Shown piece by piece: positions 1 through 12,796 of a stretch of DNA of 20,478 bases. A model generated the notes under the pieces. The model was not told where the DNA came from, searched no databases, and saw only the letters and a program-made list of their open reading frames with translations. The stretch is from the UHGV virus genome UHGV-0138524; one strand, written 5' to 3'. The stretch comes from a virus. Numbering within the stretch: the first letter of the stretch is position 1; each line of letters starts with the position of its first letter. Made by a program: the position numbers and the translations under genes.

Positions 1-55
1 GTAGAGCCGGTCACACACACCGCTGCGCCTAATTTTGCTCCCTCTCCCAAACCAA
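1..55. repeat. 55-bp exact direct repeat, copy 1 (identical to 19892-19946); encodes the first residues of a tail-fibre variable segment on the minus strand
   Basis: Base-by-base comparison of 1-55 with 19892-19946; identity stops at 56 (g) versus 19947 (c), the first base of the outer half-site. Confidence 0.9.
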
Positions 56-662
56 GGTTTTTAAGAACGTCGCCGGCCAGTCCCGCGTCAACCATTTCTT
101 TCAGAGCATTAGCGATTAACGGGTACTGCTTGTGTGGATTGGCGGCCTCAACATGTTTTTTCATCAGGTTATCAGCATATCCTTTCACCTCGATAATCTT
201 GTCGTCGACATACTGGCGCGTTGCCAGCACGACTGCCGGGTCGATTTTCAGGGTGATTGCCGATGTGTTCGACACAATCAGAATCATGCGAATGGTCTGC
301 GTGCGACCGCTTCCCTCCTGCAGTTGTGGCTTGTAGGTCTCCGGACAGTTCGCCACGGCAATCAGAATACCATCATCGTCATAGAGACCAATCTCGCGGA
401 TCCAGAAACCACCTTCATTCTCGGGAATAATCTGTTCCGCGATAATCTGACTGGTATTGGCCGGGTCAACGGTCAGCAGGTTCAGCGGCGCGATGCGTTT
501 CTGGTTAATGAGCTTCGTCTGCGCCGGGTCAGGGGTCGGCAACGTACCATTCGCATCACCGACGGCCATCTGCGTCAGGTTGAGTTTGGTACCGAGTGCC
601 GCCGCGTTCGCCAGCCGCGCCGCGCCCTGATTGGTCAGAATGGCAAAATATTTTGCGGTCAT
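1..662 (-). CDS. H: Tail fibre protein, N-terminal constant domain (P2 gpH-like), reading through crossover site L into a variable segment; 3' end lies outside the window
   Basis: Hand translation of the minus strand from ATG at 662-660: MTAKYFAILTNQGAARLANA...GILIAVANCPETYKPQLQEGSGRTQTIRMILIVS...[23 protein letters not shown], resembling the P2 H N-terminus from memory; start overlaps the gpI stop (ATGA); not in the ORF track because it is open at the window edge. Confidence 0.8.
   Translation of the reverse strand, partial: MTAKYFAILTNQGAARLANAAALGTKLNLTQMAVGDANGTLPTPDPAQTKLINQKRIAPLNLLTVDPANTSQIIAEQIIPENEGGFWIREIGLYDDDGILIAVANCPETYKPQLQEGSGRTQTIRMILIVSNTSAITLKIDPAVVLATRQYVDDKIIEVKGYADNLMKKHVEAANPHKQYPLIANALKEMVDAGLAGDVLKNLGLGEGAKLGAAVCVTGS
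43..68. other. DNA-invertase crossover site L (gix/hix-like), inside the tail fibre gene at the constant/variable boundary
   Basis: TCTCCCAAACCAAGGTTTTTAAGAAC; core AAACC-AA-GGTTT matches the hix/gix consensus as recalled. Confidence 0.7.
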
Positions 663-1267
663 GCGTTCACTCTCAGGTTATCAATCAAATGGATGGCCGA
701 GGCCGGGTAATATTCACCGCCGACGACAATCTCCTCGGGGGTGTAGGGGTAAACAGTCAGCGCGTCGCCGTGATAGCATCCCGCGCCGACATACAGTTCG
801 CCGGTCGAGCTCAGACTGATAGCCAGCCCGGTCAGGTGGCGACTTGCCGGTTTGGCGTCTTCAATCAGGCGCTCAAGCTCCTGATACATTTCGTCAGTGA
901 TGCCGCTGTCGAGGACGCCAACAACGAGGCGGAATGTGCCTGGCTCCTCGTCGAGTTGCCACCACTCGCGCACCTCAATCAGAAAGCCGAGCGGCTCGAC
1001 GACCCGACGCAATGCGCTGATGGTGCCTTTGTGCTGATGGACGAAAAACGAGGACGCGCAGACGTTGCGCTTTGTCGCCTCCGGCCATTTCTCATCCCAC
1101 CTGTCGACCGACAGCGCCCACGCCAGATACGGCAGCAGCTTTACCGGGCAGGTGCGCCAGTTCCACAGGGTGCGCAGCGGTACCGGCACGCGCTGAATCT
1201 CAGAGAACGCAGCGGCGGCGGCAACCTCCAGCGGCGACGAGCCAACGGGTAATAGCCGGTCACTCAT
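659..1267 (-). CDS. I: Baseplate assembly protein (P2 gpI-like)
   Basis: 202-aa ORF starting MSDRLLPVGSSPLEVAAA..., resembling P2 gpI; sits immediately upstream of H as in P2. Confidence 0.8.
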   Translation of the reverse strand: MSDRLLPVGSSPLEVAAAAAFSEIQRVPVPLRTLWNWRTCPVKLLPYLAWALSVDRWDEKWPEATKRNVCASSFFVHQHKGTISALRRVVEPLGFLIEVREWWQLDEEPGTFRLVVGVLDSGITDEMYQELERLIEDAKPASRHLTGLAISLSSTGELYVGAGCYHGDALTVYPYTPEEIVVGGEYYPASAIHLIDNLRVNA

Positions 1268-1598
1268 CCGAGCCCCCGATAGTTATCTGGTACTCAGTAC
1301 AATTCGACGCCTGCGACTTACTCAGCACAATGTCGGCCTGCGGTGATGCCAGTTCGACACGCTGCACCCCCTCAACATGCAGCGCCGCGTAAATGGCCGA
1401 CAGACGGATATCACGCCCGAGGCGGTGCTGCGCGCTGATGTAACTCTGCAGCTTTTGTTCTGATGCCTGCCTGATGGGCTCAGACTCGGGGCCGGGGTAA
1501 ACGTAGAGCGTCGCGTCAATTTGGTACGGCACAATCTCGGCTGACTGGACGGTCAATTCCGCTTGGCTGAATGAATCCGCGACGCTGTTCCGCCGCAA
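1260..1598 (-). pseudogene. J: Baseplate protein J, C-terminal fragment only (5'-truncated)
   Basis: 112-aa ORF (...TVQSAEIVPYQIDATLYVYPGPESEP...HRLGRDIRLSAIYAALHVEGVQRVEL...) resembles only the C-terminal third of P2 gpJ; upstream sequence switches to portal-like coding on the other strand. Confidence 0.65.
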
Positions 1599-2040
1599 GT
1601 ATTATCAGAACGGCGCGCACGCAGGCTACATCATGTATGTGACTGACCCGGCGCAGAGCGCGACCGACGTCGAATCGCTGCGCGAGGCGATGCGCAACTC
1701 AAAAGGGCTCGGCAACTTTAAGAACCTGTTTTTCTACGCTCCCGGCGGAAAACCGGACGGCATCAAAATCGTGCCACTGAGCGAGGTCGCCACAAAGGAT
1801 GACTTTTTCAACATCAAGAAGGCCAGTGCCGCCGATCTGATGGACGCGCACCGCGTACCGTTCCAGCTCATGGGCGGCAAGCCCGAGAATATCGGTTCAC
1901 TCGGTGATGTTGAGAAGGTGGCAAAGGTATTTGTGCGCAACGAGCTGTCGCCGCTACAGGACAGGTTCAGGGAGGTAAATGACTGGCTCGGCATGGAGGT
2001 CATCAGATTCAAAGAGTACACCCTCGACAACCCAGAATAA
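1594..2040 (+). pseudogene. Q: Portal protein (P2 gpQ-like), C-terminal fragment only
   Basis: Translation ...FRRKYYQNGAHAGYIMYVTDPAQSATDVESLREAMRNSKGLGNFKNLFFYAPGGKPDGIKIVPL...HRVPFQLMGGKPENIGSLGDVEKVAKVFVRNELSPLQDRF... resembles the C-terminus of P2-family portal proteins; the frame is open only from 1507, so the N-terminal two-thirds are absent. Confidence 0.6.
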
Positions 2041-2117: not shown

Positions 2118-3122
2118 ATGGGCGCGGAGATTAATATTTTGGAAACTGATTTTAAAATAACCCTCGAAGGTTTCGCTACTGAGCAAGAAGCAAATAATAT
2201 CGGTAATTTCACACTAGAAGCTATCCGAGCTTTAACAAAAAATCTCAATCTTGATATCTCCAAATTAAAATGCGTGATTGTTTCCTATAACTTCAGTGAA
2301 GCTCTTCAAAAGGTAACATCCTCTTACCAACACAAATCCCCTAGTTCATTTACCAATAGCAAACAGGGCGCAGCCGTCGGGCAGTTAGTAACAAAAATTG
2401 GCAATGATGGGCTATGTGAAGAATATACCCTTGTGCTATCGATTGATTTTTTTGTTGAGCTTTTCAATGATGGTAGCTTCTTAAAACTGAAAGAAGAAGG
2501 ATACCTCGCAGTCATCCATCGCATTCACCATGAATTAGTGCACGTACATGAAAAAAACTTACTAACATGCTTAGCCCAAAACTTTACAGTCAACGAGTAT
2601 GGTAGCGCGCTTCTTATCTCAGCCACGCGTGCATGGTCTGAATATCTCGCTAATTACATGTCTTCGGGGTCTGCCCCTCAAGAAACTATCGATTTATTTT
2701 TAGAGAATCTTGACACTGTTGTAAATGAAGTATCTGACGAGATTGAAAAACTCATCTGGGGTTATAAGTACGGTAATATTTCTCTGAATGACATGTATCT
2801 TGAAGTAAAAAAACGTATCAGGCTAATCATCAACTCTTATGCTTATGCGATGGGTTATGTCCATTCTCTAAACATCAATATTAAAGAATACGATCCAAAG
2901 CTATCCCTTACACTATCCAACTCAAAGATAAGATATCAATTATCAGAATTAGGCATTGCTTTTCAGAATCTTTATGGGAAGTTTAATGACCAGCACATTA
3001 CAGGTTTTGGTGATTTTCGGGAGATAACAATAATCATTGATGAAATATTCAAGCAGTTTGGGCTTGTTTTAGAGTGTCCCGATTGGTCTGGCGACGGTGA
3101 ACTCTACATACATGTAAATTAG
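2118..3122 (+). CDS. Hypothetical 334-aa protein with an HExxH (zincin-like) motif; AT-rich accessory gene between the portal remnant and cos
   Basis: Long ORF in clearly AT-rich DNA compared with its neighbours; motif IHRIHHELVHVHE (HELVH) at about 2524-2550; no phage core gene recognised. Confidence 0.6.
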   Translation: MGAEINILETDFKITLEGFATEQEANNIGNFTLEAIRALTKNLNLDISKLKCVIVSYNFSEALQKVTSSYQHKSPSSFTNSKQGAAVGQLVTKIGNDGLCEEYTLVLSIDFFVELFNDGSFLKLKEEGYLAVIHRIHHELVHVHEKNLLTCLAQNFTVNEYGSALLISATRAWSEYLANYMSSGSAPQETIDLFLENLDTVVNEVSDEIEKLIWGYKYGNISLNDMYLEVKKRIRLIINSYAYAMGYVHSLNINIKEYDPKLSLTLSNSKIRYQLSELGIAFQNLYGKFNDQHITGFGDFREITIIIDEIFKQFGLVLECPDWSGDGELYIHVN

Positions 3123-3341
3123 TTTAATCATAGTAGAAACATAATTAGCAGTTTGAATCCTGCCACTCCTGTAAAGCCGCTGCTCCTGGTGGCTTTTCCA
3201 TGCACACCACCATCACGCATCAGATGCGTCTCACGCGCACGAACACACTCGACCACCAACGAACCAGCAGCGACCACGACAGCGCCATCACGACGCGCTC
3301 AGAGGATAATTTTTATTATTACGCATCACTGCTGGCGCGCA

Positions 3342-3360
3342 ATGCTTTCCCCGCCACGCC
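3342..3360. other. cos cohesive-end sequence (186/P2 type)
   Basis: ATGCTTTCCCCGCCACGCC; reverse complement GGCGTGGCGGGGAAAGCAT equals the 19-nt cohesive end of coliphage 186 as I recall it and differs at two positions from P2 GGCGAGGCGGGGAAAGCAC. Confidence 0.6.
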
Positions 3361-3520
3361 TGCCCGCTTTATGGGGCGGTTTTAATGCAGTTGCATGACA
3401 ACTCTGGATCCGCGCTAGCTCTGGCGGCGCACGGACAGAACGGGCAAGACTGACGCATGCAAAACCATGCACCTAATGCATGCACGACTAAAAAACGGGA
3501 AATTCGCGGAAAAATGGCAT

Positions 3521-3550
3521 AAAAAAACCGGCATTCAGGGTGCCGGTTTT
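3521..3550. terminator. Bidirectional rho-independent terminator at the end of the SOS operon
   Basis: A7 (3521-3527), stem CCGGCA (3528-3533) / TGCCGG (3541-3546), T4 (3547-3550); on the minus strand the hairpin is followed by U7. Confidence 0.6.
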
Positions 3551-3568
3551 AGTCTGGTTTTGTCGCGA

Positions 3569-3670
3569 TTAATGGCCGCGCAATGCGCCAATAACACTGT
3601 TGAGGCACATGCTGGCAACAATCATCAGAAAAATCGTCGTCCACGGATTTTCATAAACGATAGATAACAT
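3569..3670 (-). CDS. Candidate 33-aa hydrophobic (single transmembrane-like) peptide
   Basis: Hand translation MLSIVYENPWTTIFLMIVASMCLNSVIGALRGH; AAGAGGAA Shine-Dalgarno-like sequence upstream of the ATG; ends just before the terminator; absent from the ORF track, which lists nothing under 60 aa. Confidence 0.3.
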   Translation of the reverse strand: MLSIVYENPWTTIFLMIVASMCLNSVIGALRGH

Positions 3671-3686
3671 ATTTATATAGTTCCTC

Positions 3687-3992
3687 TTATTTGCGCATTC
3701 TGATGTGATTTAACAGGTGTTTGATAACGACTGATAGCTCATCTTTACCGGCCTGCTCGACCATTTTTGCGGTGTAGCTTTCCACCTCGCGAGAGCTCAG
3801 GTCGTTATTTAAAGCCATTAAAGTCAGATTCTTTGCCCAATCGGCAAACGGGTCATTTTTCGATGAAAGGGGATTTTGCATGTACAAAAACCTCGAATTA
3901 TTTAACCAGCAGACGGTTGAAGTATTTGCGACGCTATGACCGGCTAACGCCTCGCGTAGCTCGTTGTTCAACCCCGCCAGCACTGAAAGCAA
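3687..3992 (-). CDS. Hypothetical 101-aa protein in the SOS operon (TTG start as called)
   Basis: ORF downstream of the DinI-like gene in the same orientation; no family recognised. Confidence 0.4.
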   Translation of the reverse strand: MLSVLAGLNNELREALAGHSVANTSTVCWLNNSRFLYMQNPLSSKNDPFADWAKNLTLMALNNDLSSREVESYTAKMVEQAGKDELSVVIKHLLNHIRMRK

Positions 3993-4014
3993 GTTTCAGC
4001 ACCGGCGGCGTTTG

Positions 4015-4248
4015 TTAATGCAGCCAGCTATCGTCCTCCCATACCTGCTGCATGATTTCCATTACTCGTTTTTTATCTTCGTCCAGTTTCAAACCGCTTA
4101 GTTCAACGCCATTAGCGGAGCCCTTGCGAATTCGGATAGCAGTCTTTGGGTAAATAGGTTGAAGATTGCGGTACAGTTCAGCCTCAAGTGCATCCAATGT
4201 TGCCTGACTAATTTTTTGCTCTTTATCCAACGTGATATTGATTCTCAT
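4015..4248 (-). CDS. DinI-family protein (DNA-damage-inducible protein I-like; Tum-like module)
   Basis: 77-aa MRINITLDKEQKISQATLDALEAELYRNLQ...KKRVMEIMQQVWEDDSWLH resembles E. coli DinI and the DinI-like part of 186 Tum. Confidence 0.65.
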   Translation of the reverse strand: MRINITLDKEQKISQATLDALEAELYRNLQPIYPKTAIRIRKGSANGVELSGLKLDEDKKRVMEIMQQVWEDDSWLH

Positions 4249-4251
4249 AAT

Positions 4252-4434
4252 CTAATCAGCCTTATAAAAATTATCATCTTCGGTTTCGTTATTTTCGCTG
4301 TTTGCTAGGTCTGCAATGAGAGTGAGCGCGAGCTTTAAGTCTGATGGCTTGCAGTTTGCAATCAGAGATACCTCGGCAATAAATTGCACACAAGCCCACT
4401 TTTGCTGCGTTCGGCTGAAATGTTCGCCAACCAT
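4252..4434 (-). CDS. Hypothetical 60-aa protein, first gene of the SOS operon
   Basis: ATG at 4434 preceded by GGGAGGG; a LexA box lies about 20 nt upstream; stop is 3 nt before the DinI-like ATG. Confidence 0.4.
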   Translation of the reverse strand: MVGEHFSRTQQKWACVQFIAEVSLIANCKPSDLKLALTLIADLANSENNETEDDNFYKAD

Positions 4435-4453
4435 GAAATCCCTCCCACAGGGT

Positions 4454-4473
4454 TACTGTATATTTATACAGTA
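4454..4473. promoter_or_regulatory. LexA (SOS) box overlapping the promoter of the minus-strand operon
   Basis: TACTGTATATTTATACAGTA, a near-perfect match to the palindromic CTGT-N8-ACAG consensus. Confidence 0.75.
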
Positions 4474-4547
4474 GCACGTATTGGCAAAAGATGGGAAGAA
4501 AAAAAACGAATAGAGCGATTGCTGTATGTGCATGATATGGATATGAA

Positions 4548-6770
4548 TTACCCATGTATTGGTTTTGATGCTTCAGCCATCGCCGCAACACGATTAAGGA
4601 TTTTCCGAGCTTTAGCCTCATGCGATGGTGCTGCGGAAAATATTTCTCCTTTGGCCGTTCCGCGTAGCCATTTACCATCAAAACAACTTTTACCACCGGC
4701 CATCAGGTGCAGGGCTTCGCCCCGGCTGATATTAATGCCGGTTGTCAGATGTATCTCATCGATAGTTTTAGCTATAGCTGCGTTTTGCTCATCCGTTCCG
4801 TGGATGAATTTTCGCCGTGCTGCTGGCTTTTGCTTCCTGAGTCGGTTGGTCAATTCTCGTCTTTCACGCCGACTCAGTGGTTTTGTTAAATCCAGTATCG
4901 GTGGATCGCTTTCGCTTCCCGTACAGTTATTGACAGAACTCCGAGGGACGGCTTTGCCGTCCTGAAGGTCAACGGCCAAATCAACAGCACGCTTCGGAAC
5001 AATCTTCCACTGAGTGAGCCGGGTTAAAATCGGGCTTCCTGCACCTATGGAGGAATCGTAGACCCCCTTAATACATACCGTTTCCTCACCGTACTGATTA
5101 AGCTCGGTGCGCGGTTCATACAGTGTGCGCACCTGTAAATCATCGCGACGGACAAACGGCCCACCCTGAGCATTAACATAACCAGCCCAGTCACCAGCGT
5201 CGGCGGCATCATGGACGGCGGCAAACTCAACGCTCAGACCGTGCGCGGTTTCGGTATCAGCGAGGCGACGCAACTCACGGTAAACCGTCACCGGCGCACC
5301 ACCAATAAACTGAAACTGACGGATGTGCCAGCGCGCAGCCCATGCTGAAACGGCGGGGGCTGTCTCTTTCAGCAGCTCACCGCTTTCATCATCGGTTTCA
5401 CCATCGAGAGCATAACCGTCGATATTTTTTGAAATGTATTTAGCAACATAGCCGGTTGCGCTGCCTTTCTCCGGGTCAATGGACTCGGCGTGGAAACGTG
5501 CTTTTTTGGATTTATCGCTTTTCAGTTCGTGGCGGTCTTCTTTCCATGCGTATTTACGGACGATGGAGCGAACATATTCAACATCTTCCGGCAGCATGAA
5601 CATCAGCATGTGCCAGTGTGGAGTGCCGTCGTGATGGGGCTCGGCGACACGAATACCGAAAATACGGACATCTTCCCGATGTAGTTTGGCACGGATACGC
5701 GCCCAGATACCGGTTAGATAGTTTTGCGTGTCAGCCGGGCTGGCACCGCTCCATTTGCTGTTACGGTAACCGGCTTTAGTCGTGGCGTGATATTTTGACG
5801 GCGCGGTTAGAGTGTAAAACTCACCGACATAACCGAGCTCATTACAGATGTTTTCAAACCCACGAATGCGGGTCATGAGCTCACAGCGGCGAATCGCAGG
5901 GTTAGCAACTGAGCCATCATATTTTTCAATTAGGCTGATACGGTTGCCGTCTTCGTCTTCGAGATCCAGACCTTTGAGAAATTCACGAGTGCGGCGCTTT
6001 TGTTCACGCCAGTCAGTCACGCAGTTTTTACTCGCGTAAGTGTTTTTTTTCTTACTGACGTTGCCGACTGCAATTTGCAGGTGTTCGCGCCACGTAGCTG
6101 CAACACGGCGCAAACGACCGCGCCACCACCCATCGTTAAACATTTTGGCGATAGCCGGTGCGATTTCATCCGCACCGACATATTTTTTTTCAACCCGCTC
6201 CCAATGTGGTGGGATAACGTTGAATTGGAGGGAAATAAAGCCAGCACGAATATACCAGGTGTACAGCGTTTTAAGCTCGCCGAATCCGTGGTCATTAATG
6301 TTGGCAAGTTCACCACGAATGAAATTAGCAATATCAGCGGCCAACAGGTCAACATCAGCGCGCGACATGTCCGGGAGACGGTTATATTGGGCGACCATAT
6401 TAACCATGCGTGACGACAGATATTGCATTTGCTGAGTATCAAAATGACTTCCAAAAACAGCGGTTGATACCTTGCTGTTGATACCAGCGCATTCGTATTT
6501 TTTTGCGACCAGTTCAAGACGCGGCAATGCCTTTTTGCAGAAGCTGATTAAAAATGCATTGGCTCGTTGACTACCCTGATTTTGCTCCAGCACCGCAGCA
6601 GTGCGATAAACATCTAACCGCACGCAGTCGGGCTGGAGAGAAAGCACCTTTTTTGCATGCAGCAAAGCCGCGAACATACGGTCGCGGCGATGCTGTTGCT
6701 CATAAGTAAGGTATGGGCTGGAGATTGCCGACCGTGGGACGTTCCACGGATAAGCGAATTGAACAGCCAA
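4548..6770 (-). CDS. A: Replication initiation endonuclease (P2 gpA-like rolling-circle initiator)
   Basis: 740-aa ORF with HDGTPHWHMLMF (His-hydrophobic-His) and GYVAKYISKN (paired tyrosine) motifs typical of the family. Confidence 0.85.
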   Translation of the reverse strand: MAVQFAYPWNVPRSAISSPYLTYEQQHRRDRMFAALLHAKKVLSLQPDCVRLDVYRTAAVLEQNQGSQRANAFLISFCKKALPRLELVAKKYECAGINSKVSTAVFGSHFDTQQMQYLSSRMVNMVAQYNRLPDMSRADVDLLAADIANFIRGELANINDHGFGELKTLYTWYIRAGFISLQFNVIPPHWERVEKKYVGADEIAPAIAKMFNDGWWRGRLRRVAATWREHLQIAVGNVSKKKNTYASKNCVTDWREQKRRTREFLKGLDLEDEDGNRISLIEKYDGSVANPAIRRCELMTRIRGFENICNELGYVGEFYTLTAPSKYHATTKAGYRNSKWSGASPADTQNYLTGIWARIRAKLHREDVRIFGIRVAEPHHDGTPHWHMLMFMLPEDVEYVRSIVRKYAWKEDRHELKSDKSKKARFHAESIDPEKGSATGYVAKYISKNIDGYALDGETDDESGELLKETAPAVSAWAARWHIRQFQFIGGAPVTVYRELRRLADTETAHGLSVEFAAVHDAADAGDWAGYVNAQGGPFVRRDDLQVRTLYEPRTELNQYGEETVCIKGVYDSSIGAGSPILTRLTQWKIVPKRAVDLAVDLQDGKAVPRSSVNNCTGSESDPPILDLTKPLSRRERRELTNRLRKQKPAARRKFIHGTDEQNAAIAKTIDEIHLTTGINISRGEALHLMAGGKSCFDGKWLRGTAKGEIFSAAPSHEAKARKILNRVAAMAEASKPIHG

Positions 6771-8823: not shown

Positions 8824-9670
8824 TATGTCTAAAAATGATGTTAATGCGTCTGCCGCATTGGAACGTGTCCTTTCTGCATACGGCTTTAAGCAGCAAAAGG
8901 AACTAGCCGAAAGGCTTGGCATACATGCAAACAACGTGAGTAGCTGGCTTGCTAGAAACGTAATCCCTAGCAACGTTTTCGTTGAGTGTGCTCTTGATAC
9001 TGGAGCTGACCTGCGATGGCTAATTAATGGTGAGCTTGCAAATGCAAGATTTGAAGTGGTGAAAACTAAGCTTAAAGGTAAGCAACTCTATGATGAAATC
9101 ATGGCAAATGGAGGGAGGGCGGTTCTGCGTCGGATTCTCGATGCGTATGGTTTTACTCTGCAAAAAGAGCTTGGAGATTTATTAGGTATATCTTCCGGCA
9201 CTATAAGCACTTGGGTTAGACGCGATTTTTTCCCCGGTGACGTGGTTGTCACTTGCGCCCTTGATACTGGCGTATCGTTAGAATGGTTATCAACCGGAAA
9301 AGGCCAGATGCGTAACAGTAATGATGGTGAACCGGCAAATGCTTTAACGATTAGAAAGTGCCGCCTCGAGGCTGGCGAACTCAAAGATATCGGACGCTGG
9401 ACTCCTGATATATCTATGGTTCCATCAAATACTGATGATTTAGTGTTTATTGATGGTGTGAGCACATCTTGGCTTGTTGATAGTTCTAACTCGAAGATAG
9501 GAAATGGTCGCTGGCTTATTGGTATTGATGGCGCACTCGATGTTTTTGACGTAATCAGGTTGCCAGGCGGAAAGGTCAGGTTATCAAATAAGTCTGCTGA
9601 GTTTGAATGTAATATTTCAGATATCACACCATCAGGTGCGGTTATTTTTACTTTGGAAAAGCATGTTTAA
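8824..9670 (+). CDS. CI-type immunity repressor (186 CI-like) with a tandemly duplicated N-terminal DNA-binding domain
   Basis: From the internal ATG at 8824 (MSKNDV...); repeat 1 LERVLSAYGFKQQKELAERLGIHANNVSSWLARNVIPSNVFVECALDTGADLRWLINGE and repeat 2 LRRILDAYGFTLQKELGDLLGISSGTISTWVRRDFFPGDVVVTCALDTGVSLEWLSTGK; the track ORF starts at 8636, inside the upstream gene. Confidence 0.65.
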
Positions 9671-9679
9671 GGAGCAGTA

Positions 9680-10018
9680 ATGAAAAAGTTTATATTTGCG
9701 ATAGTCTGCATTGCACTTTCTTCCTCAGCCATAGCCGCTGAGAAGTTTAAAGAGATAGACGGCGCTGCATATGGTGACAAGTGGCCTCTAACCTTTGAAA
9801 AGGCAAAGGTATCATGTGTTAACCGTGCTTATGCTTTTGTGTATGACATCAAAACTGATGATAGATATCCTCTGAATGGCATGGCGGTAGATGCTGTTAA
9901 ATCAGGAAAGCTGGAGGGGTCTAACTTAGATGACGTATGGAAGGATGACCCTGAGTATGACGGCGTTAAAATTTCAATTTCACCGGTGATTGATGCCGCT
10001 ACAGCCCTTTGTAATTAA
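9680..10018 (+). CDS. Secreted or periplasmic small protein (DUF2511/YebY-like, assigned from memory); moron between the repressor and int
   Basis: N-terminal signal peptide MKKFIFAIVCIALSSSAIAAE; GGAG 7 nt upstream of the ATG. Confidence 0.55.
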   Translation: MKKFIFAIVCIALSSSAIAAEKFKEIDGAAYGDKWPLTFEKAKVSCVNRAYAFVYDIKTDDRYPLNGMAVDAVKSGKLEGSNLDDVWKDDPEYDGVKISISPVIDAATALCN

Positions 10019-10042: not shown

Positions 10043-11092
10043 ATGACTGTAAGTAAACAAAAAAGTGGAAAATGGTTGTGTGAACTCTATCCAAATGGTC
10101 GAGAAGGGCGGCGTATACGTCGGCAGTTCAATACCAAAGGTGAGGCCGAGGCATTTGAAGCATTTACCAAAAGCGAGAGTGAAGATAAGCCGTGGCTCGG
10201 CAAGAAAGAAGACCGCCGACGCTTAAGCGAGATTATTCAGCTTTGGCACAATTTGCACGGTCAAGCGTTAGTCGCCAGTAAGTCGAGATTTGCAAAGCTT
10301 CAAATCGTATGTAATGGACTTGGCGACCCGATTGCATCTCGCCTTACCGCGAAAGACTGGGCTCATTATCGTGACCGTCGATTACGTGGTGAAATAGACA
10401 ATGGTTATCATAAAGACCCCTCGAAATGGATCGCCAAACCTATAACCGTCAATCGCGAACAACAATACCTAGAAGCAGTGTTTAATGAGCTCCGCCGGTT
10501 AGGGGAGTGGAGCCTACCCAATCCACTTGATGGGATCCGAGTATTCAAAGAAGCTGAGAAAGAAATGTCCTGGCTAACTTTGTCTCAGCTCCCGGAGCTG
10601 TTTCGAGCCTGCGAGCAATACGGCAAAGAAGACCTCACCATGATTGTTAAGGTGTGCCTTGCAACCGGCGCTCGATGGGGGGAAGCGGAGAGATTGACCC
10701 GACCTCAACTTTCTCCATATAAACTAACGTTCACCAAAACCAAAGGTAAGAAGAATCGCACAGTTCCTATTCCTAAATGGCTGTACGACGAGTTGTCCGT
10801 ACGTCAAGGCAGAATGTTTAAACCCTGCTATCAGGAGTTTAAAAAGATGCTCAAACTAACGAATATTGAATTGACGGAAGGGCAGAAGACGCACGTTTTG
10901 CGTCATACTTTTGGTGCGCATTTTATGATGAACGGAGGGAATATACTGGTGCTGCAGAAAATTCTCGGACATGCCAATATTCGAGAAACAATGAAGTATG
11001 CGCACTTTGCTCCTGACCACCTTGAACAAGCTGTAACCCTCAATCCGTTATCGCTGTATGTTGGCGACAATGTGGCGGCAGAGGTTGCATAA
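10043..11092 (+). CDS. int: Tyrosine integrase (P2/186 family)
   Basis: 349 aa; N-terminus ...GKWLCELYPNGREGRRIRRQFNTKGEAEAFE; catalytic-region signature VLRHTFGAHFMMNGGNILVLQKILGHANIRETMKYAH. Confidence 0.85.
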   Translation: MTVSKQKSGKWLCELYPNGREGRRIRRQFNTKGEAEAFEAFTKSESEDKPWLGKKEDRRRLSEIIQLWHNLHGQALVASKSRFAKLQIVCNGLGDPIASRLTAKDWAHYRDRRLRGEIDNGYHKDPSKWIAKPITVNREQQYLEAVFNELRRLGEWSLPNPLDGIRVFKEAEKEMSWLTLSQLPELFRACEQYGKEDLTMIVKVCLATGARWGEAERLTRPQLSPYKLTFTKTKGKKNRTVPIPKWLYDELSVRQGRMFKPCYQEFKKMLKLTNIELTEGQKTHVLRHTFGAHFMMNGGNILVLQKILGHANIRETMKYAHFAPDHLEQAVTLNPLSLYVGDNVAAEVA

Positions 11093-11626: not shown

Positions 11627-12796
11627 TCACTCCTCATTTTCTTCTGAGCTGTACTCCACATCGGAGAGTTTAACCTCAAGCTCTAAGCCCGTCGTGAAAC
11701 CGTTATTATTGAGGTTGTGGGTCACCTTGCTGATTAACCATGCCTGCTCGTCTATGACGCGCTTAAAGCCTGACACGCGTACAGGCGTCTCAGGAAATAA
11801 ATCCGCTCGCCCTAGCGCCAGTGTGATTGAAAACTCCGCAACACCTCGCTGCAGTTTATCCCACTTAGCCTGAGCGGCGCGCATCGCCTGTGCCTTTGAG
11901 GCATAGACTGTCGTCAGCGCCAGCACGTTATCGGCTTCACCGGCCATGTACTCACCCTCACGTGCTTCCTGTTCTTTTTTGACCTTTGTCTTTTTGCTGA
12001 CCGGCTTTGCTTTTGGGTGTTCCAGTGCGCGCAGGTGCTTCTCTTTTGGCTTGCGTTTCAGCGTTACTTTCTGCTTTTGTGGCTTCGGGTCTTTGGTGTG
12101 CAACCATTTAGCAGTGACGCCGGTATAAGCCCCACGGTCGGCAATGGCAAACTGATGACGGTCACCATCACTGCGGGTCAGCGTCATTTGCGGGACGGGT
12201 TTGCCGCTGGCCGTCATCGCACTACCGGCTTTCAGAAACAACAGTTTCCCTGCCTTCACCGATACCGTTGCCCCGTTGCGGTCAGCCAGTCGACTCAAAA
12301 ATACCGCGTCGGATTCCTGCGACTGGTCGATATGCGGTACCGGGATTTTTTTCAGCGATTCCGCAATGCTGGCCGTCAGTTTGTTGCGCTTTGCGATGGT
12401 ACTGACCAGTTCGCCGATGGTGGTGTCGTGCCATGACTCTTCACGCCTGGAATTTAGCGTGCCGCGAAAGTCCGCGCTGCGCGCCCGGATGGTCAGGGTA
12501 TCAGGAGCCCCCCGGTGCTCAATCTCATCGACCGTAAAATCCCCCTTATTCAGCAGCGCCGAACCCTGCCAGCCAAGCCACAACGTCAGCACTGCCCCGC
12601 GCAGGGGTAACTCGACTTTCCCATCGGTGTCATCGAGCTCAATGTCGAGCTGGTCAGCTTCAAAGCCCCTATTGTCCGTCATGGTGAGAGAAATCAGCCG
12701 GTCGCTGAAGTTGCTGGTAATGTCCTGACTGTTCAGCGTCAGCATAAAAGCCGGTGCAAGGCTGGCACCGGCGTCAATTGCCATCCCCGTTATCAT
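11627..12796 (-). CDS. D: Tail protein D (P2 gpD-like late control/tail protein)
   Basis: 389-aa ORF in conserved P2 order (ogr-D-U-T); sequence resembles gpD. Confidence 0.8.
   Translation of the reverse strand: MITGMAIDAGASLAPAFMLTLNSQDITSNFSDRLISLTMTDNRGFEADQLDIELDDTDGKVELPLRGAVLTLWLGWQGSALLNKGDFTVDEIEHRGAPDTLTIRARSADFRGTLNSRREESWHDTTIGELVSTIAKRNKLTASIAESLKKIPVPHIDQSQESDAVFLSRLADRNGATVSVKAGKLLFLKAGSAMTASGKPVPQMTLTRSDGDRHQFAIADRGAYTGVTAKWLHTKDPKPQKQKVTLKRKPKEKHLRALEHPKAKPVSKKTKVKKEQEAREGEYMAGEADNVLALTTVYASKAQAMRAAQAKWDKLQRGVAEFSITLALGRADLFPETPVRVSGFKRVIDEQAWLISKVTHNLNNNGFTTGLELEVKLSDVEYSSEENEE

Follow-up and report, generated by a model that had tools for sequence, protein, structure and literature searches.

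What does a minus-strand operon beside the cohesive end of a temperate phage do when its second gene is parted from its first by a single stop codon? In the 20,478-nucleotide stretch of viral DNA analysed here (UHGV virus genome UHGV-0138524; hereafter the window), an earlier note made from the letters alone had described such an operon and read it as an SOS-induction module of separate small ORFs. We found a minus-strand operon running from 4497 to 3521, between gene A (6770-4548) and cos, which is the location of Tum/TumA genes. It comprises a promoter with a LexA box, a 60-aa ORF, TAG plus ATT, a 77-aa ORF, two further small ORFs and a terminator (Table 1). The LexA box, the first two ORFs and the hydrophobic 33-aa ORF followed by terminator and cos all stood where the note had put them.

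Alignment with the annotated 186 record showed the region to be homologous to the 186 p95 SOS operon, and the record of Salmonella phage PSP3 carries the same two genes, annotated as tumA ('UV induction of prophage') and tumB. From these comparisons, the operon very probably serves SOS induction in a temperate phage of the PSP3/186 type (Eganvirus). The module reading was thereby supported and is not new: the split tumA/tumB form is already annotated and discussed, and the DNA-damage switch of 186/PSP3-type phages to which it belongs is genuine, ordinary and previously described.

Table 1. Positions of the operon's features, of cos and of the presumed repressor target in the window
Feature	Position	Strand	Details
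p95-type promoter	4468..4497	-	-35 TTCCCA 4497-4492, 18-nt spacer, -10 TACTGT 4473-4468
LexA box	4454..4473	.	TACTGTATAAATATACAGTA (operon strand); overlaps the -10 hexamer
tumA	4252..4434	-	60 aa, predicted antirepressor; homologue of the N-terminal half of 186 Tum
tumA/tumB junction	4249..4254	-	tumA TAG + ATT, then in-frame tumB ATG; GATTAGATTATG invariant in 11 loci
tumB	4015..4248	-	77 aa, DinI family; Pfam PF06183, 7.4e-24
Conserved intercistronic element	3946..4014	-	probable gene-cassette boundary; 15-bp RNA hairpin 4012-3970
orf64	3687..3881	-	64 aa, conserved helical protein (phrog_2454); ATG at 3881
pep33	3569..3670	-	33 aa, hydrophobic single-helix peptide; AAGAGGA upstream
Intrinsic terminator	3521..3550	-	186 t95b homologue; 10-bp stem 3550-3524, U run to 3521
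cos	3342..3360	-	19-nt cohesive-end sequence GGCGTGGCGGGGAAAGCAT; = 186 bases 1-19, annotated cos
cI	8825..9670	+	186-family immunity repressor, presumed TumA target; two tandem HTH domains

A predicted LexA operator overlies a p95-type promoter

We located the promoter through its position-for-position alignment with the annotated p95 of 186 (186: -35 TTCACA, -10 TACTGT); a generic sigma-70 consensus scan of 3100-4800 called no promoter, this p95-type site included. The LexA box over it reads TACTGTATATTTATACAGTA on the plus strand and has one mismatch to the consensus TACTG(TA)5CAGTA. It is the sole CTGT-N8-ACAG in the 20.5-kb window, and the 20-mer LexA pattern is expected 0.01 times in shuffled sequence. 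Comparison with the 186 tum region, a check that the earlier note had proposed, aligned promoter and box base for base, the counterpart of the box being the annotated LexA site of 186 (TACTGTATGTTTATACAGTA). PSP3, SW9, SI22, Midge, RCIP0057, 613R3 and SEN1 carry an identical box, as do the prophages of E. coli TW10598, 1008S13 and PKF8, and the box of ECE313 differs at one base. In diverged tumA loci a LexA box likewise lies ~40 nt upstream of tumA. We thus regard 4454-4473 as a predicted LexA operator over the promoter, as at known Tum/TumA loci.

The other end of the operon aligns with the annotated t95b region of 186. With its U7 tail and folding energy of -14.2 kcal/mol (z = -2.6), the terminator has the features of an intrinsic terminator, and it stands ~160 nt ahead of cos. 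Overall, promoter, LexA box, hairpin element, t95b and cos are all conserved with the 186 operon (p95-tum-orf97-t95b).

TumA is a profile-level relative of the N-terminal part of 186 Tum

Phage 186 is induced via LexA-regulated p95-tum, with Tum sequestering CI (PMC7708051); Tum binds CI, blocks its operator binding and is needed for SOS induction (PMC3121763, PMC7708051). The 60-aa ORF of the window is preceded by a Shine-Dalgarno sequence (GGGAGGG at 4446-4440), and its product is identical to PSP3 TumA at 59 of 60 residues. The window ORF and residues 1-61 of 186 Tum both match phrog_1993 (1.1e-31 and 1e-22), while pairwise BLASTP of TumA against 186 Tum gave no match, and kinship with the N-terminal part of Tum is therefore apparent at the profile level only. 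The similarity to Tum and DinI on which the earlier reading hung was nonetheless found, in the matches to phrog_1993 and Pfam DinI.

Among Enterobacteriaceae, homologues of 60-61 aa fall into more than 200 clusters and share a core at residues 13-44 that is nearly invariant; some of them carry the name TumA. Diverged prophages of Kosakonia, Enterobacter, Salmonella and Buttiauxella also keep a LexA box and tumA immediately behind gene A. The E. coli RefSeq prophage annotations give TumA as a 'hypothetical protein', a label that could be replaced by SOS antirepressor TumA. The AlphaFold model of TumA is a two-helix hairpin (pLDDT 72) and that of orf64 has three helices (pLDDT 68); helical models of this length say little, and a Foldseek search of the PDB with both gave nothing better than E = 2. 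A sequence search of the PDB returned no TumA relative, and none of TumA, orf64 and pep33 had a significant match in Pfam, NCBIfam or PADLOC.

The closest well-annotated relative is informative here. PSP3 (NC_005340) has the same order of gene A, LexA box, tumA, tumB and cos, with an identical LexA box and an identical TAG-ATT-ATG junction; the split is also reported for Fels-2. A passage in PMC3121763, citing Bunny et al. 2002, states that a stop codon divides tum of PSP3 and Fels-2 and that the upstream gene is the antirepressor, and for PSP3 that activity is referred there to a personal communication.

The window encodes a tandem-HTH CI as presumed target

The window's CI contains Pfam PF07022 (in two stretches) and PF16452, as a cognate CI should, and is 32% identical to 186 CI and 73% identical to PSP3 CI, which is of the same tandem-HTH type. 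Its second HTH domain varies as little as TumA does. Since 186 CI has a single HTH and the window CI an extra one, details of the TumA-CI interaction are not simply transferable from 186; binding of TumA to the window phage's CI is predicted from homology. Across PSP3-type phages TumA is invariant, and their CIs differ mainly in the first HTH domain, so the docking site of TumA could be the invariant second HTH or the C-terminal domain of CI. TumA could also serve as a universal key, cross-inducing heteroimmune prophages that reside in the same cell.

TumB is a phage member of the DinI family

TumB matched Pfam DinI (PF06183) at 84.3 bits (cut-off 24.2) over profile positions 2-63 of 63 and aligned full-length with E. 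coli DinI (1GHH; E = 2.6e-9), acidic C-terminal helix included. It is identical to PSP3 TumB at 76 of 77 residues and 47% identical to residues 71-145 of 186 Tum, corresponding to the Tum product begun at an internal GTG of 186 tum. Against the host DinI equivalog NCBIfam NF007893, TumB scored 52.3 bits, below the 111-bit cut-off, and by this measure it is a phage DinI paralogue rather than the host orthologue. Whereas 186 carries the antirepressor and DinI-like parts in one 146-aa protein with internal starts, the window carries them as two genes.

Proposed mechanism of induction

In a lysogen, host LexA would occupy the box over the -10 of the p95-type promoter and keep the operon silent. 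DNA damage would then lead to RecA-stimulated self-cleavage of LexA and free the promoter. TumA, the first product, a two-helix protein of 60 aa, would bind CI and so release the lytic promoter, and the prophage would be induced without repressor cleavage, in the manner of the LexA-controlled antirepressor known to sequester CI in 186. TumB, the second product, would most likely tune the RecA filament or the SOS signal, or else have a modulating effect on induction like the short Tum products of 186. Transcription would cross the hairpin element into orf64 and pep33 and end at the t95b-type terminator. Head genes, lysis genes and part of the tail genes are missing from the window's phage copy, and its switch may yield no phage production.

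What is re-identified here is a textbook route of prophage induction that bypasses repressor cleavage by means of a LexA-controlled antirepressor. The same logic, LexA-repressed small antirepressors directed against a non-cleavable repressor, is seen in Gifsy GfoA/GftA and N15 AntC, and the LexA-controlled dinI-antirepressor-irsA operons of Gifsy phages also place a dinI homologue in an antirepressor operon (PMC3121763). The Gifsy phages differ in being lambdoid, in having dinI first and in using unrelated antirepressor and repressor families, so the likeness is one of logic alone.

A conserved hairpin element separates tumB from two cargo genes

Downstream of tumB the known phages diverge: PSP3 has gp37 and gp38, 186 has the terminator t95a and orf97 and is without orf64 and pep33, and the window has orf64 and pep33 in the place of gp38. 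Between tumB and orf64 lies the intercistronic element, found in 66 Peduoviridae records, 186 and P2 among them. Its RNA hairpin (-29.4 kcal/mol, z = -4.15) shows compensatory changes at five pairs, and G-U pairs are possible only on the minus (operon) strand. The element is doubled around an extra ORF in PSP3, SW9, 1008S13 and others; relative to PSP3, a gp37-like cassette appears to have been lost from the window via recombination between two copies. As a repeat, the element probably bounds the cassettes of the variable region and mediates their loss.

For the first cargo gene, the earlier note's 101-aa ORF held as to place and failed as to length. The mechanically called ORF (3992-3687) starts at TTG, and its first 37 codons overlie the conserved non-coding hairpin element. 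The 64-aa gene covers positions 1-64 of 64 of phrog_2454 (E = 4.6e-40), the PGAP annotation at this site is 195 nt long, and the model of its product has no significant fold match in the PDB.

The second, pep33, shares a core (YENPWTT.FL.IV.S.CLNS.IG.LRG) and a constant length with its counterparts in nine loci, whose sequences show as many as 15 differences in 102 nt, with conservative replacements. The record of Klebsiella phage ST147-VIM1phi7.1 annotates the gene, and PGAP does not call it in E. coli. HMMER returned only 5 proteins at E ≤ 0.001 among 1.84 billion representatives (identities 71-95%); the 3 of these checked by identity were close relatives and gave no functional lead. Pfam, NCBIfam, PHROG and PADLOC gave no match. 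From this conservation, pep33 is probably a real small membrane protein. The Rfam model Thr_leader overlapped pep33 and the terminator at 22.8 bits (cut-off 55, E = 0.17), and we rejected it as a chance hairpin/U-tract match. A 33-aa membrane-peptide gene near cos is absent from E. coli RefSeq annotations.

Possible SOS control of the cargo genes

Operon geometry, together with the 186 annotation in which p95 transcripts end at t95b, suggests that orf64 and pep33 are co-transcribed with tumA and tumB and thus SOS-induced. An alternative, which we think possible but unlikely, is that they stand outside the SOS operon, either as a separately regulated, independent moron or, for pep33, as no gene at all. 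The cassette adjoins cos in phages of varied upstream content: in phage FSL SP-004 the 1.8 kb upstream of orf64-pep33 contain no LexA box, so any SOS control of the pair would be context-dependent. Midge, ECE313 and ST147 have a divergently oriented 143-aa gene abutting orf64, and a hairpin of -29 kcal/mol intervenes between tumB and the cassette. That hairpin, however, is without a U tract, and p95 transcripts of 186 cross the same element on their way to t95b. Both cargo genes moreover share the strand of tumA and tumB, and no sigma-70-like promoter scoring above 8/12 was found in the 130-nt gap between tumB and orf64.

As to whether pep33 is a gene, its changes against the most diverged copy (4 synonymous, 10 non-synonymous) are not decisive, one alternative frame behaves similarly, and PGAP does not call it. 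Yet start, length, ribosome-binding site and hydrophobicity are kept in the nine loci, the ORF is visibly better conserved than the spacer between its stop and the terminator, and pep33 outlives a precise loss of orf64 in SEN1. We favour pep33 as a gene and both cargo genes as members of the operon.

TisB is an SOS-induced small membrane peptide. If the cargo acted in a TisB-like way, it would affect the host membrane, for example by depolarisation or growth arrest, by lysis timing or by exclusion of other phages. The similarity of pep33 to the SOS-induced toxins TisB and DinQ extends only to size, hydrophobicity and presumed LexA control; we found no family similarity to them, no LexA box of its own and, with Rfam, no antisense RNA partner. 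The orf64-pep33 module is without assigned function, or uncalled, in most annotation pipelines. That it is an SOS-induced module acting on the host membrane and that TumA is at the same time a universal cross-inducing key is a speculative combination, to which we give little credence.

The stop codon separates two genes

Two readings would make the tumA stop something other than an ordinary end of a gene. Programmed readthrough of UAG-AUU-AUG, giving a 139-aa fused Tum as the active antirepressor much as in 186, was a possibility that the earlier note had suggested checking; the check did not support it, and we consider it highly improbable. It would fit the shared frame of tumA and tumB, with one stop and one sense codon between them, the unchanged junction of 11 loci and the single gene of 186, which yields a full-length protein plus DinI-only products. 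The spacing of stop, 3 nt and ATG also recurs in a diverged Enterobacter locus, although as TAA-GTT-ATG, and among diverged loci the tumA stop may be TAG, TAA or TGA. RNA folding of the junction gave no significant structure above background (z = -0.79), and among diverged loci neither the stop nor the downstream ORF is constant, as would be expected for readthrough. The dinI-like gene is absent from 3 of the 4 diverged loci with a LexA box and tumA, which argues that TumA works alone. In phage 613R3 tumB has been replaced by a 186-like allele, with the recombination point just inside tumB, so that tumA and tumB behave as separable modules. The report that the upstream gene of PSP3 carries the antirepressor activity (PMC3121763) points the same way, towards two genes with separate products.

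Decay, in which a nonsense mutation in a formerly fused tum left a non-functional remnant, is no more credible: the frame does run on into tumB, alignment with 186 gives an in-frame 36-nt length difference plus the stop, and the window's own phage copy is deleted for head genes, but we rejected a pseudogene reading of tumA on the conservation of its length and core in those >200 clusters, on a Shine-Dalgarno sequence and LexA box of its own at every locus examined, and on the same split genes in the viable isolated phages PSP3, SW9, SI22, SEN1 and Midge.

A probably LexA-controlled tumA-tumB operon next to cos

The window is DNA of a 186/PSP3-type phage (genus Eganvirus), with its minus strand in 186 map order. 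By megablast, positions 3300-4700 matched Salmonella phages SW9 and SI22 (93-94% identity), E. coli phage Midge, PSP3 and others, and prophages in 342 of 5,426 complete E. coli genomes, at up to 99.4% identity (best single-piece match TW10598, 99.2%).

An earlier note had described this region as a minus-strand operon with a LexA box on its promoter, a 60-aa ORF separated by a stop and 3 nt from a 77-aa DinI-like ORF, a 101-aa ORF, and a 33-aa hydrophobic ORF followed by a terminator before cos. We confirmed this layout with one boundary correction. The LexA-box pattern occurs once in the window (0.01 expected by chance), the -10 hexamer (TACTGT) is the left arm of the box, and the promoter aligns base for base with the DNA of the LexA-controlled p95 promoter of coliphage 186 (-35 TTCCCA in the window versus TTCACA in 186; 18-nt spacer). 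The two tandem ORFs, tumA and tumB, can be read directly, the predicted folding energy of the terminator is -14.2 kcal/mol (z = -2.6), and the 186 record begins with the same 19-mer (bases 1-19), annotated there as cos. The correction concerns the 101-aa ORF, which exists as a mechanical ORF from a TTG at 3992, whereas the conserved gene has 64 codons from an ATG at 3881 (orf64). The extra 37 codons overlie a conserved non-coding element, while orf64 covers phrog_2454 end to end and, in E. coli prophages, is called by PGAP as a gene of 195 nt.

Features of the operon and of other parts of the window
Feature	Position	Strand	Basis
T-rich stretch and promoter	start of minus-strand reading 4500 -> 3340	-	window sequence
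LexA box 20-mer, TACTGTATAAATATACAGTA	4473-4454	-	window sequence
Ribosome-binding site GGGAGGG	between LexA box and 60-codon ORF	-	window sequence
tumA, 60 codons, TAG end	4434-4252	-	window sequence
tumB, 77 codons, in-frame ATG after tumA TAG + ATT	4248-4015	-	window sequence
69-nt conserved element, directly 3' of tumB	4014-3946	-	fold and conservation
Long hairpin of this element	between 77-codon and 64-codon ORFs	-	window sequence
orf64, 64 codons	3881-3687	-	window sequence
pep33, 33 codons, hydrophobic, own AAGAGGA	3670-3569	-	window sequence
Stem-loop + U7 terminator	3550-3521	-	window sequence
cos 19-mer, GGCGTGGCGGGGAAAGCAT	3360-3342	-	identity to 186 cos
CI, 186 CI family; two tandem Phage_CI_repr HTH domains + CI C-terminal domain	8825-9670		
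P2-type tail protein I and C-terminal end of baseplate J	1-1598	-	
Portal, C-terminal 135 aa only	1633-2040	+	
334-aa gene	2118-3122	+	
61-aa ORF across cos	3200-3385	+	
DUF2511 gene	9680-10018	+	
int	10043-11092		
ogr-like zinc-finger gene	11333-11596		
Gene D	11627-12796		

Relation of TumA and TumB to Tum of phage 186

In PSP3, the first ORF is annotated tumA ('similar to 5' end 186 tum; UV induction of prophage') and the second tumB ('similar to dinI and 3' end of 186 tum'), and each window protein differs from its PSP3 counterpart at a single residue (of 60 and 77, respectively). The DinI-like assignment of the second ORF was borne out by a DinI-family match (Pfam, 84 bits), a full-length alignment with E. 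coli DinI (PDB 1GHH) and 47% identity to 186 Tum residues 71-145, exactly the internal-GTG product that the 186 record describes as 'modulating SOS induction'. TumA gave no pairwise BLASTP match to 186 Tum, but both proteins hit the profile phrog_1993, TumA at 1e-31 and 186 Tum with residues 1-61 at 1e-22; their homology is thus real but distant. Across Enterobacteriaceae, more than 200 protein clusters (60-61 aa) consist of TumA homologues; UniRef gives the name 'TumA' to several of them, and residues 13-44 form a near-invariant core.

Lemire et al. 2011 (PMC3121763) noted that 186 Tum resembles an antirepressor fused to DinI; for PSP3 and Fels-2, where a stop codon splits tum and the upstream gene is the antirepressor, they refer to Bunny et al. 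2002 and to a personal communication of G. E. Christie. In 186, the LexA-regulated p95 is derepressed by SOS, and CI is sequestered by Tum (PMC7708051). The p95-like promoter, the shared phrog_1993 profile and the near-identical PSP3 tumA-tumB support the proposal that this is the SOS-induction module arranged as separate ORFs. The module is already known as tumA-tumB of PSP3 and Fels-2; new ground lies only in the tandem-HTH CI, the hairpin repeat and the small cargo genes.

The LexA box and tumA as the conserved unit

The earlier note called for a check on readthrough or recoding at the tumA stop. tumA and tumB share a frame, and their junction (GATTAGATTATG) is invariant in 11 loci. RNA structure at the junction did not exceed background (z = -0.79). 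We fetched four diverged tumA loci (72-82% identity), all with a LexA box ~40 nt upstream and a position directly after gene A; their tumA stops are TAG, TAA, TAA and TGA, and three of the four lack a dinI-like gene, carrying instead tail and lysis genes, HEPN/GmrSD-type genes or an HD-domain gene 3' of tumA. Readthrough or recoding is not supported by these results. The single diverged locus with a dinI gene keeps the stop + 3 nt + ATG spacing, with TAA as the stop. The most plausible explanation for the close spacing of tumA and tumB is ordinary translational coupling or common ancestry.

Phage vB_EcoM-613R3 (L007, 2267-2683) has a tumA identical to the window copy and a 186-like tumB allele (35 of 77 residues identical to window TumB), with a recombination breakpoint ~30 nt inside tumB. 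Given this swap and the three dinI-less loci, the conserved unit is therefore the LexA box plus tumA, and tumB is a separable accessory.

The dinI-less arrangement was seen in Kosakonia (L021), Salmonella (L023) and Buttiauxella (L024) prophages. The Salmonella variant is very common (3,605 blocks of the collection) and has convergent HEPN_RiboL-PSP and GmrSD_N genes after tumA; in Buttiauxella, tumA is followed by a gene for a 918-aa HD-CE protein. These genes may serve in defence, as cargo of the same variable slot.

The CI repressor as presumed target of TumA

The window CI has two HTH domains where 186 CI has one. Close homologues of this tandem-HTH CI (at least 67% identity) were found in SI22, SW9, PSP3, 613R3, SEN1, Midge and RCIP0057, all of which carry the split tumA. 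We compared SW9, PSP3, Midge and RCIP0057 with the window domain by domain: TumA is identical at 59-60 of 60 residues, the second HTH domain at 92-97% and the C-terminal domain at 76-93%, while the first HTH domain shows 51-61% identity (98% in SW9). Within this set, the pattern is consistent with, though no proof of, a model in which immunity specificity would be set by the first HTH domain and TumA would dock on an invariant part of CI. Some Klebsiella phages have apparent distant tandem-type CIs.

A repeated hairpin element 3' of tumB

The 69-nt element contains a 15-bp hairpin (-29.4 kcal/mol, z = -4.15) whose G-U pairs occur only on the transcribed strand, and among 14 element copies compensatory changes were found at five hairpin pairs, which together suggest that it functions as RNA. 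The 186 copy of the element lies between orf97 and t95b, where the p95 transcript ends according to the annotation, and thus does not stop p95 transcription there. The element was found in 66 Peduoviridae records, P2 and 186 included; this part of the genome is the counterpart of the variable 'TO region' of P2-like phages.

Two copies flank a 210-219-nt ORF in PSP3, SW9, SI22, 613R3, SEN1 and several E. coli prophages (loci L001, L002, L007, L009, L010, L012 and L014, two copies each). The window and E. coli TW10598 each have one hybrid copy with different crossover points, the products of two independent cassette deletions through recombination between the repeats.

The orf64-pep33 cassette

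In the loci compared, orf64 and pep33 always occur together, 16-19 nt apart, beside the terminator and cos. The pair is present in SW9, SI22, Midge, FSL SP-004 and Klebsiella phages (proteins 62-70% identical to the window's), in the last 3' of a fused 186-type tum. The length, start, ribosome-binding site and hydrophobic helix of pep33 are kept in nine loci of E. coli, Salmonella and Klebsiella phages, and SEN1 retains pep33 despite a precise loss of orf64. pep33 is annotated in phage ST147-VIM1phi7.1 and uncalled by PGAP. Searches returned no relatives of pep33 beyond its small family, and neither protein matched a named family or solved fold.

From their position on the same strand as tumAB, a gap free of promoter-like sites, a hairpin that lacks a U tract and the precedent of the 186 transcript, we infer that orf64 and pep33 would be SOS-induced in this phage. 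Counting against this, FSL SP-004 carries the cassette with no LexA box nearby.

Other features of the phage copy

Identity of 99.7-100% to E. coli prophages begins exactly at 1555. The phage copy lacks head and lysis genes and several tail genes, and it carries an internal deletion or a mis-joining (window 1-2040). The contiguous order of int, an att-type spacer, the ogr-like gene and D is that of a circular or attP form, not an integrated prophage.

The 334-aa gene between the portal gene and cos is AT-rich (GC 0.33-0.41), matches phrog_11743, a profile of unknown function, and gave no match in Pfam, NCBIfam or PADLOC; it looks like a moron ending the portal-terminase operon, and TW10598 has other genes at this spot. 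In E. coli prophages, PGAP calls the 61-aa ORF a hypothetical protein (186 nt). This ORF, which overlaps the cohesive-end site, is probably spurious; in SW9, an opposite-strand ORF of the same right-end region is named 'aI protein'. The DUF2511 gene between cI and int, with an apparent signal peptide, is a lysogeny-operon moron, as it is also found in PSP3, SW9 and Midge.
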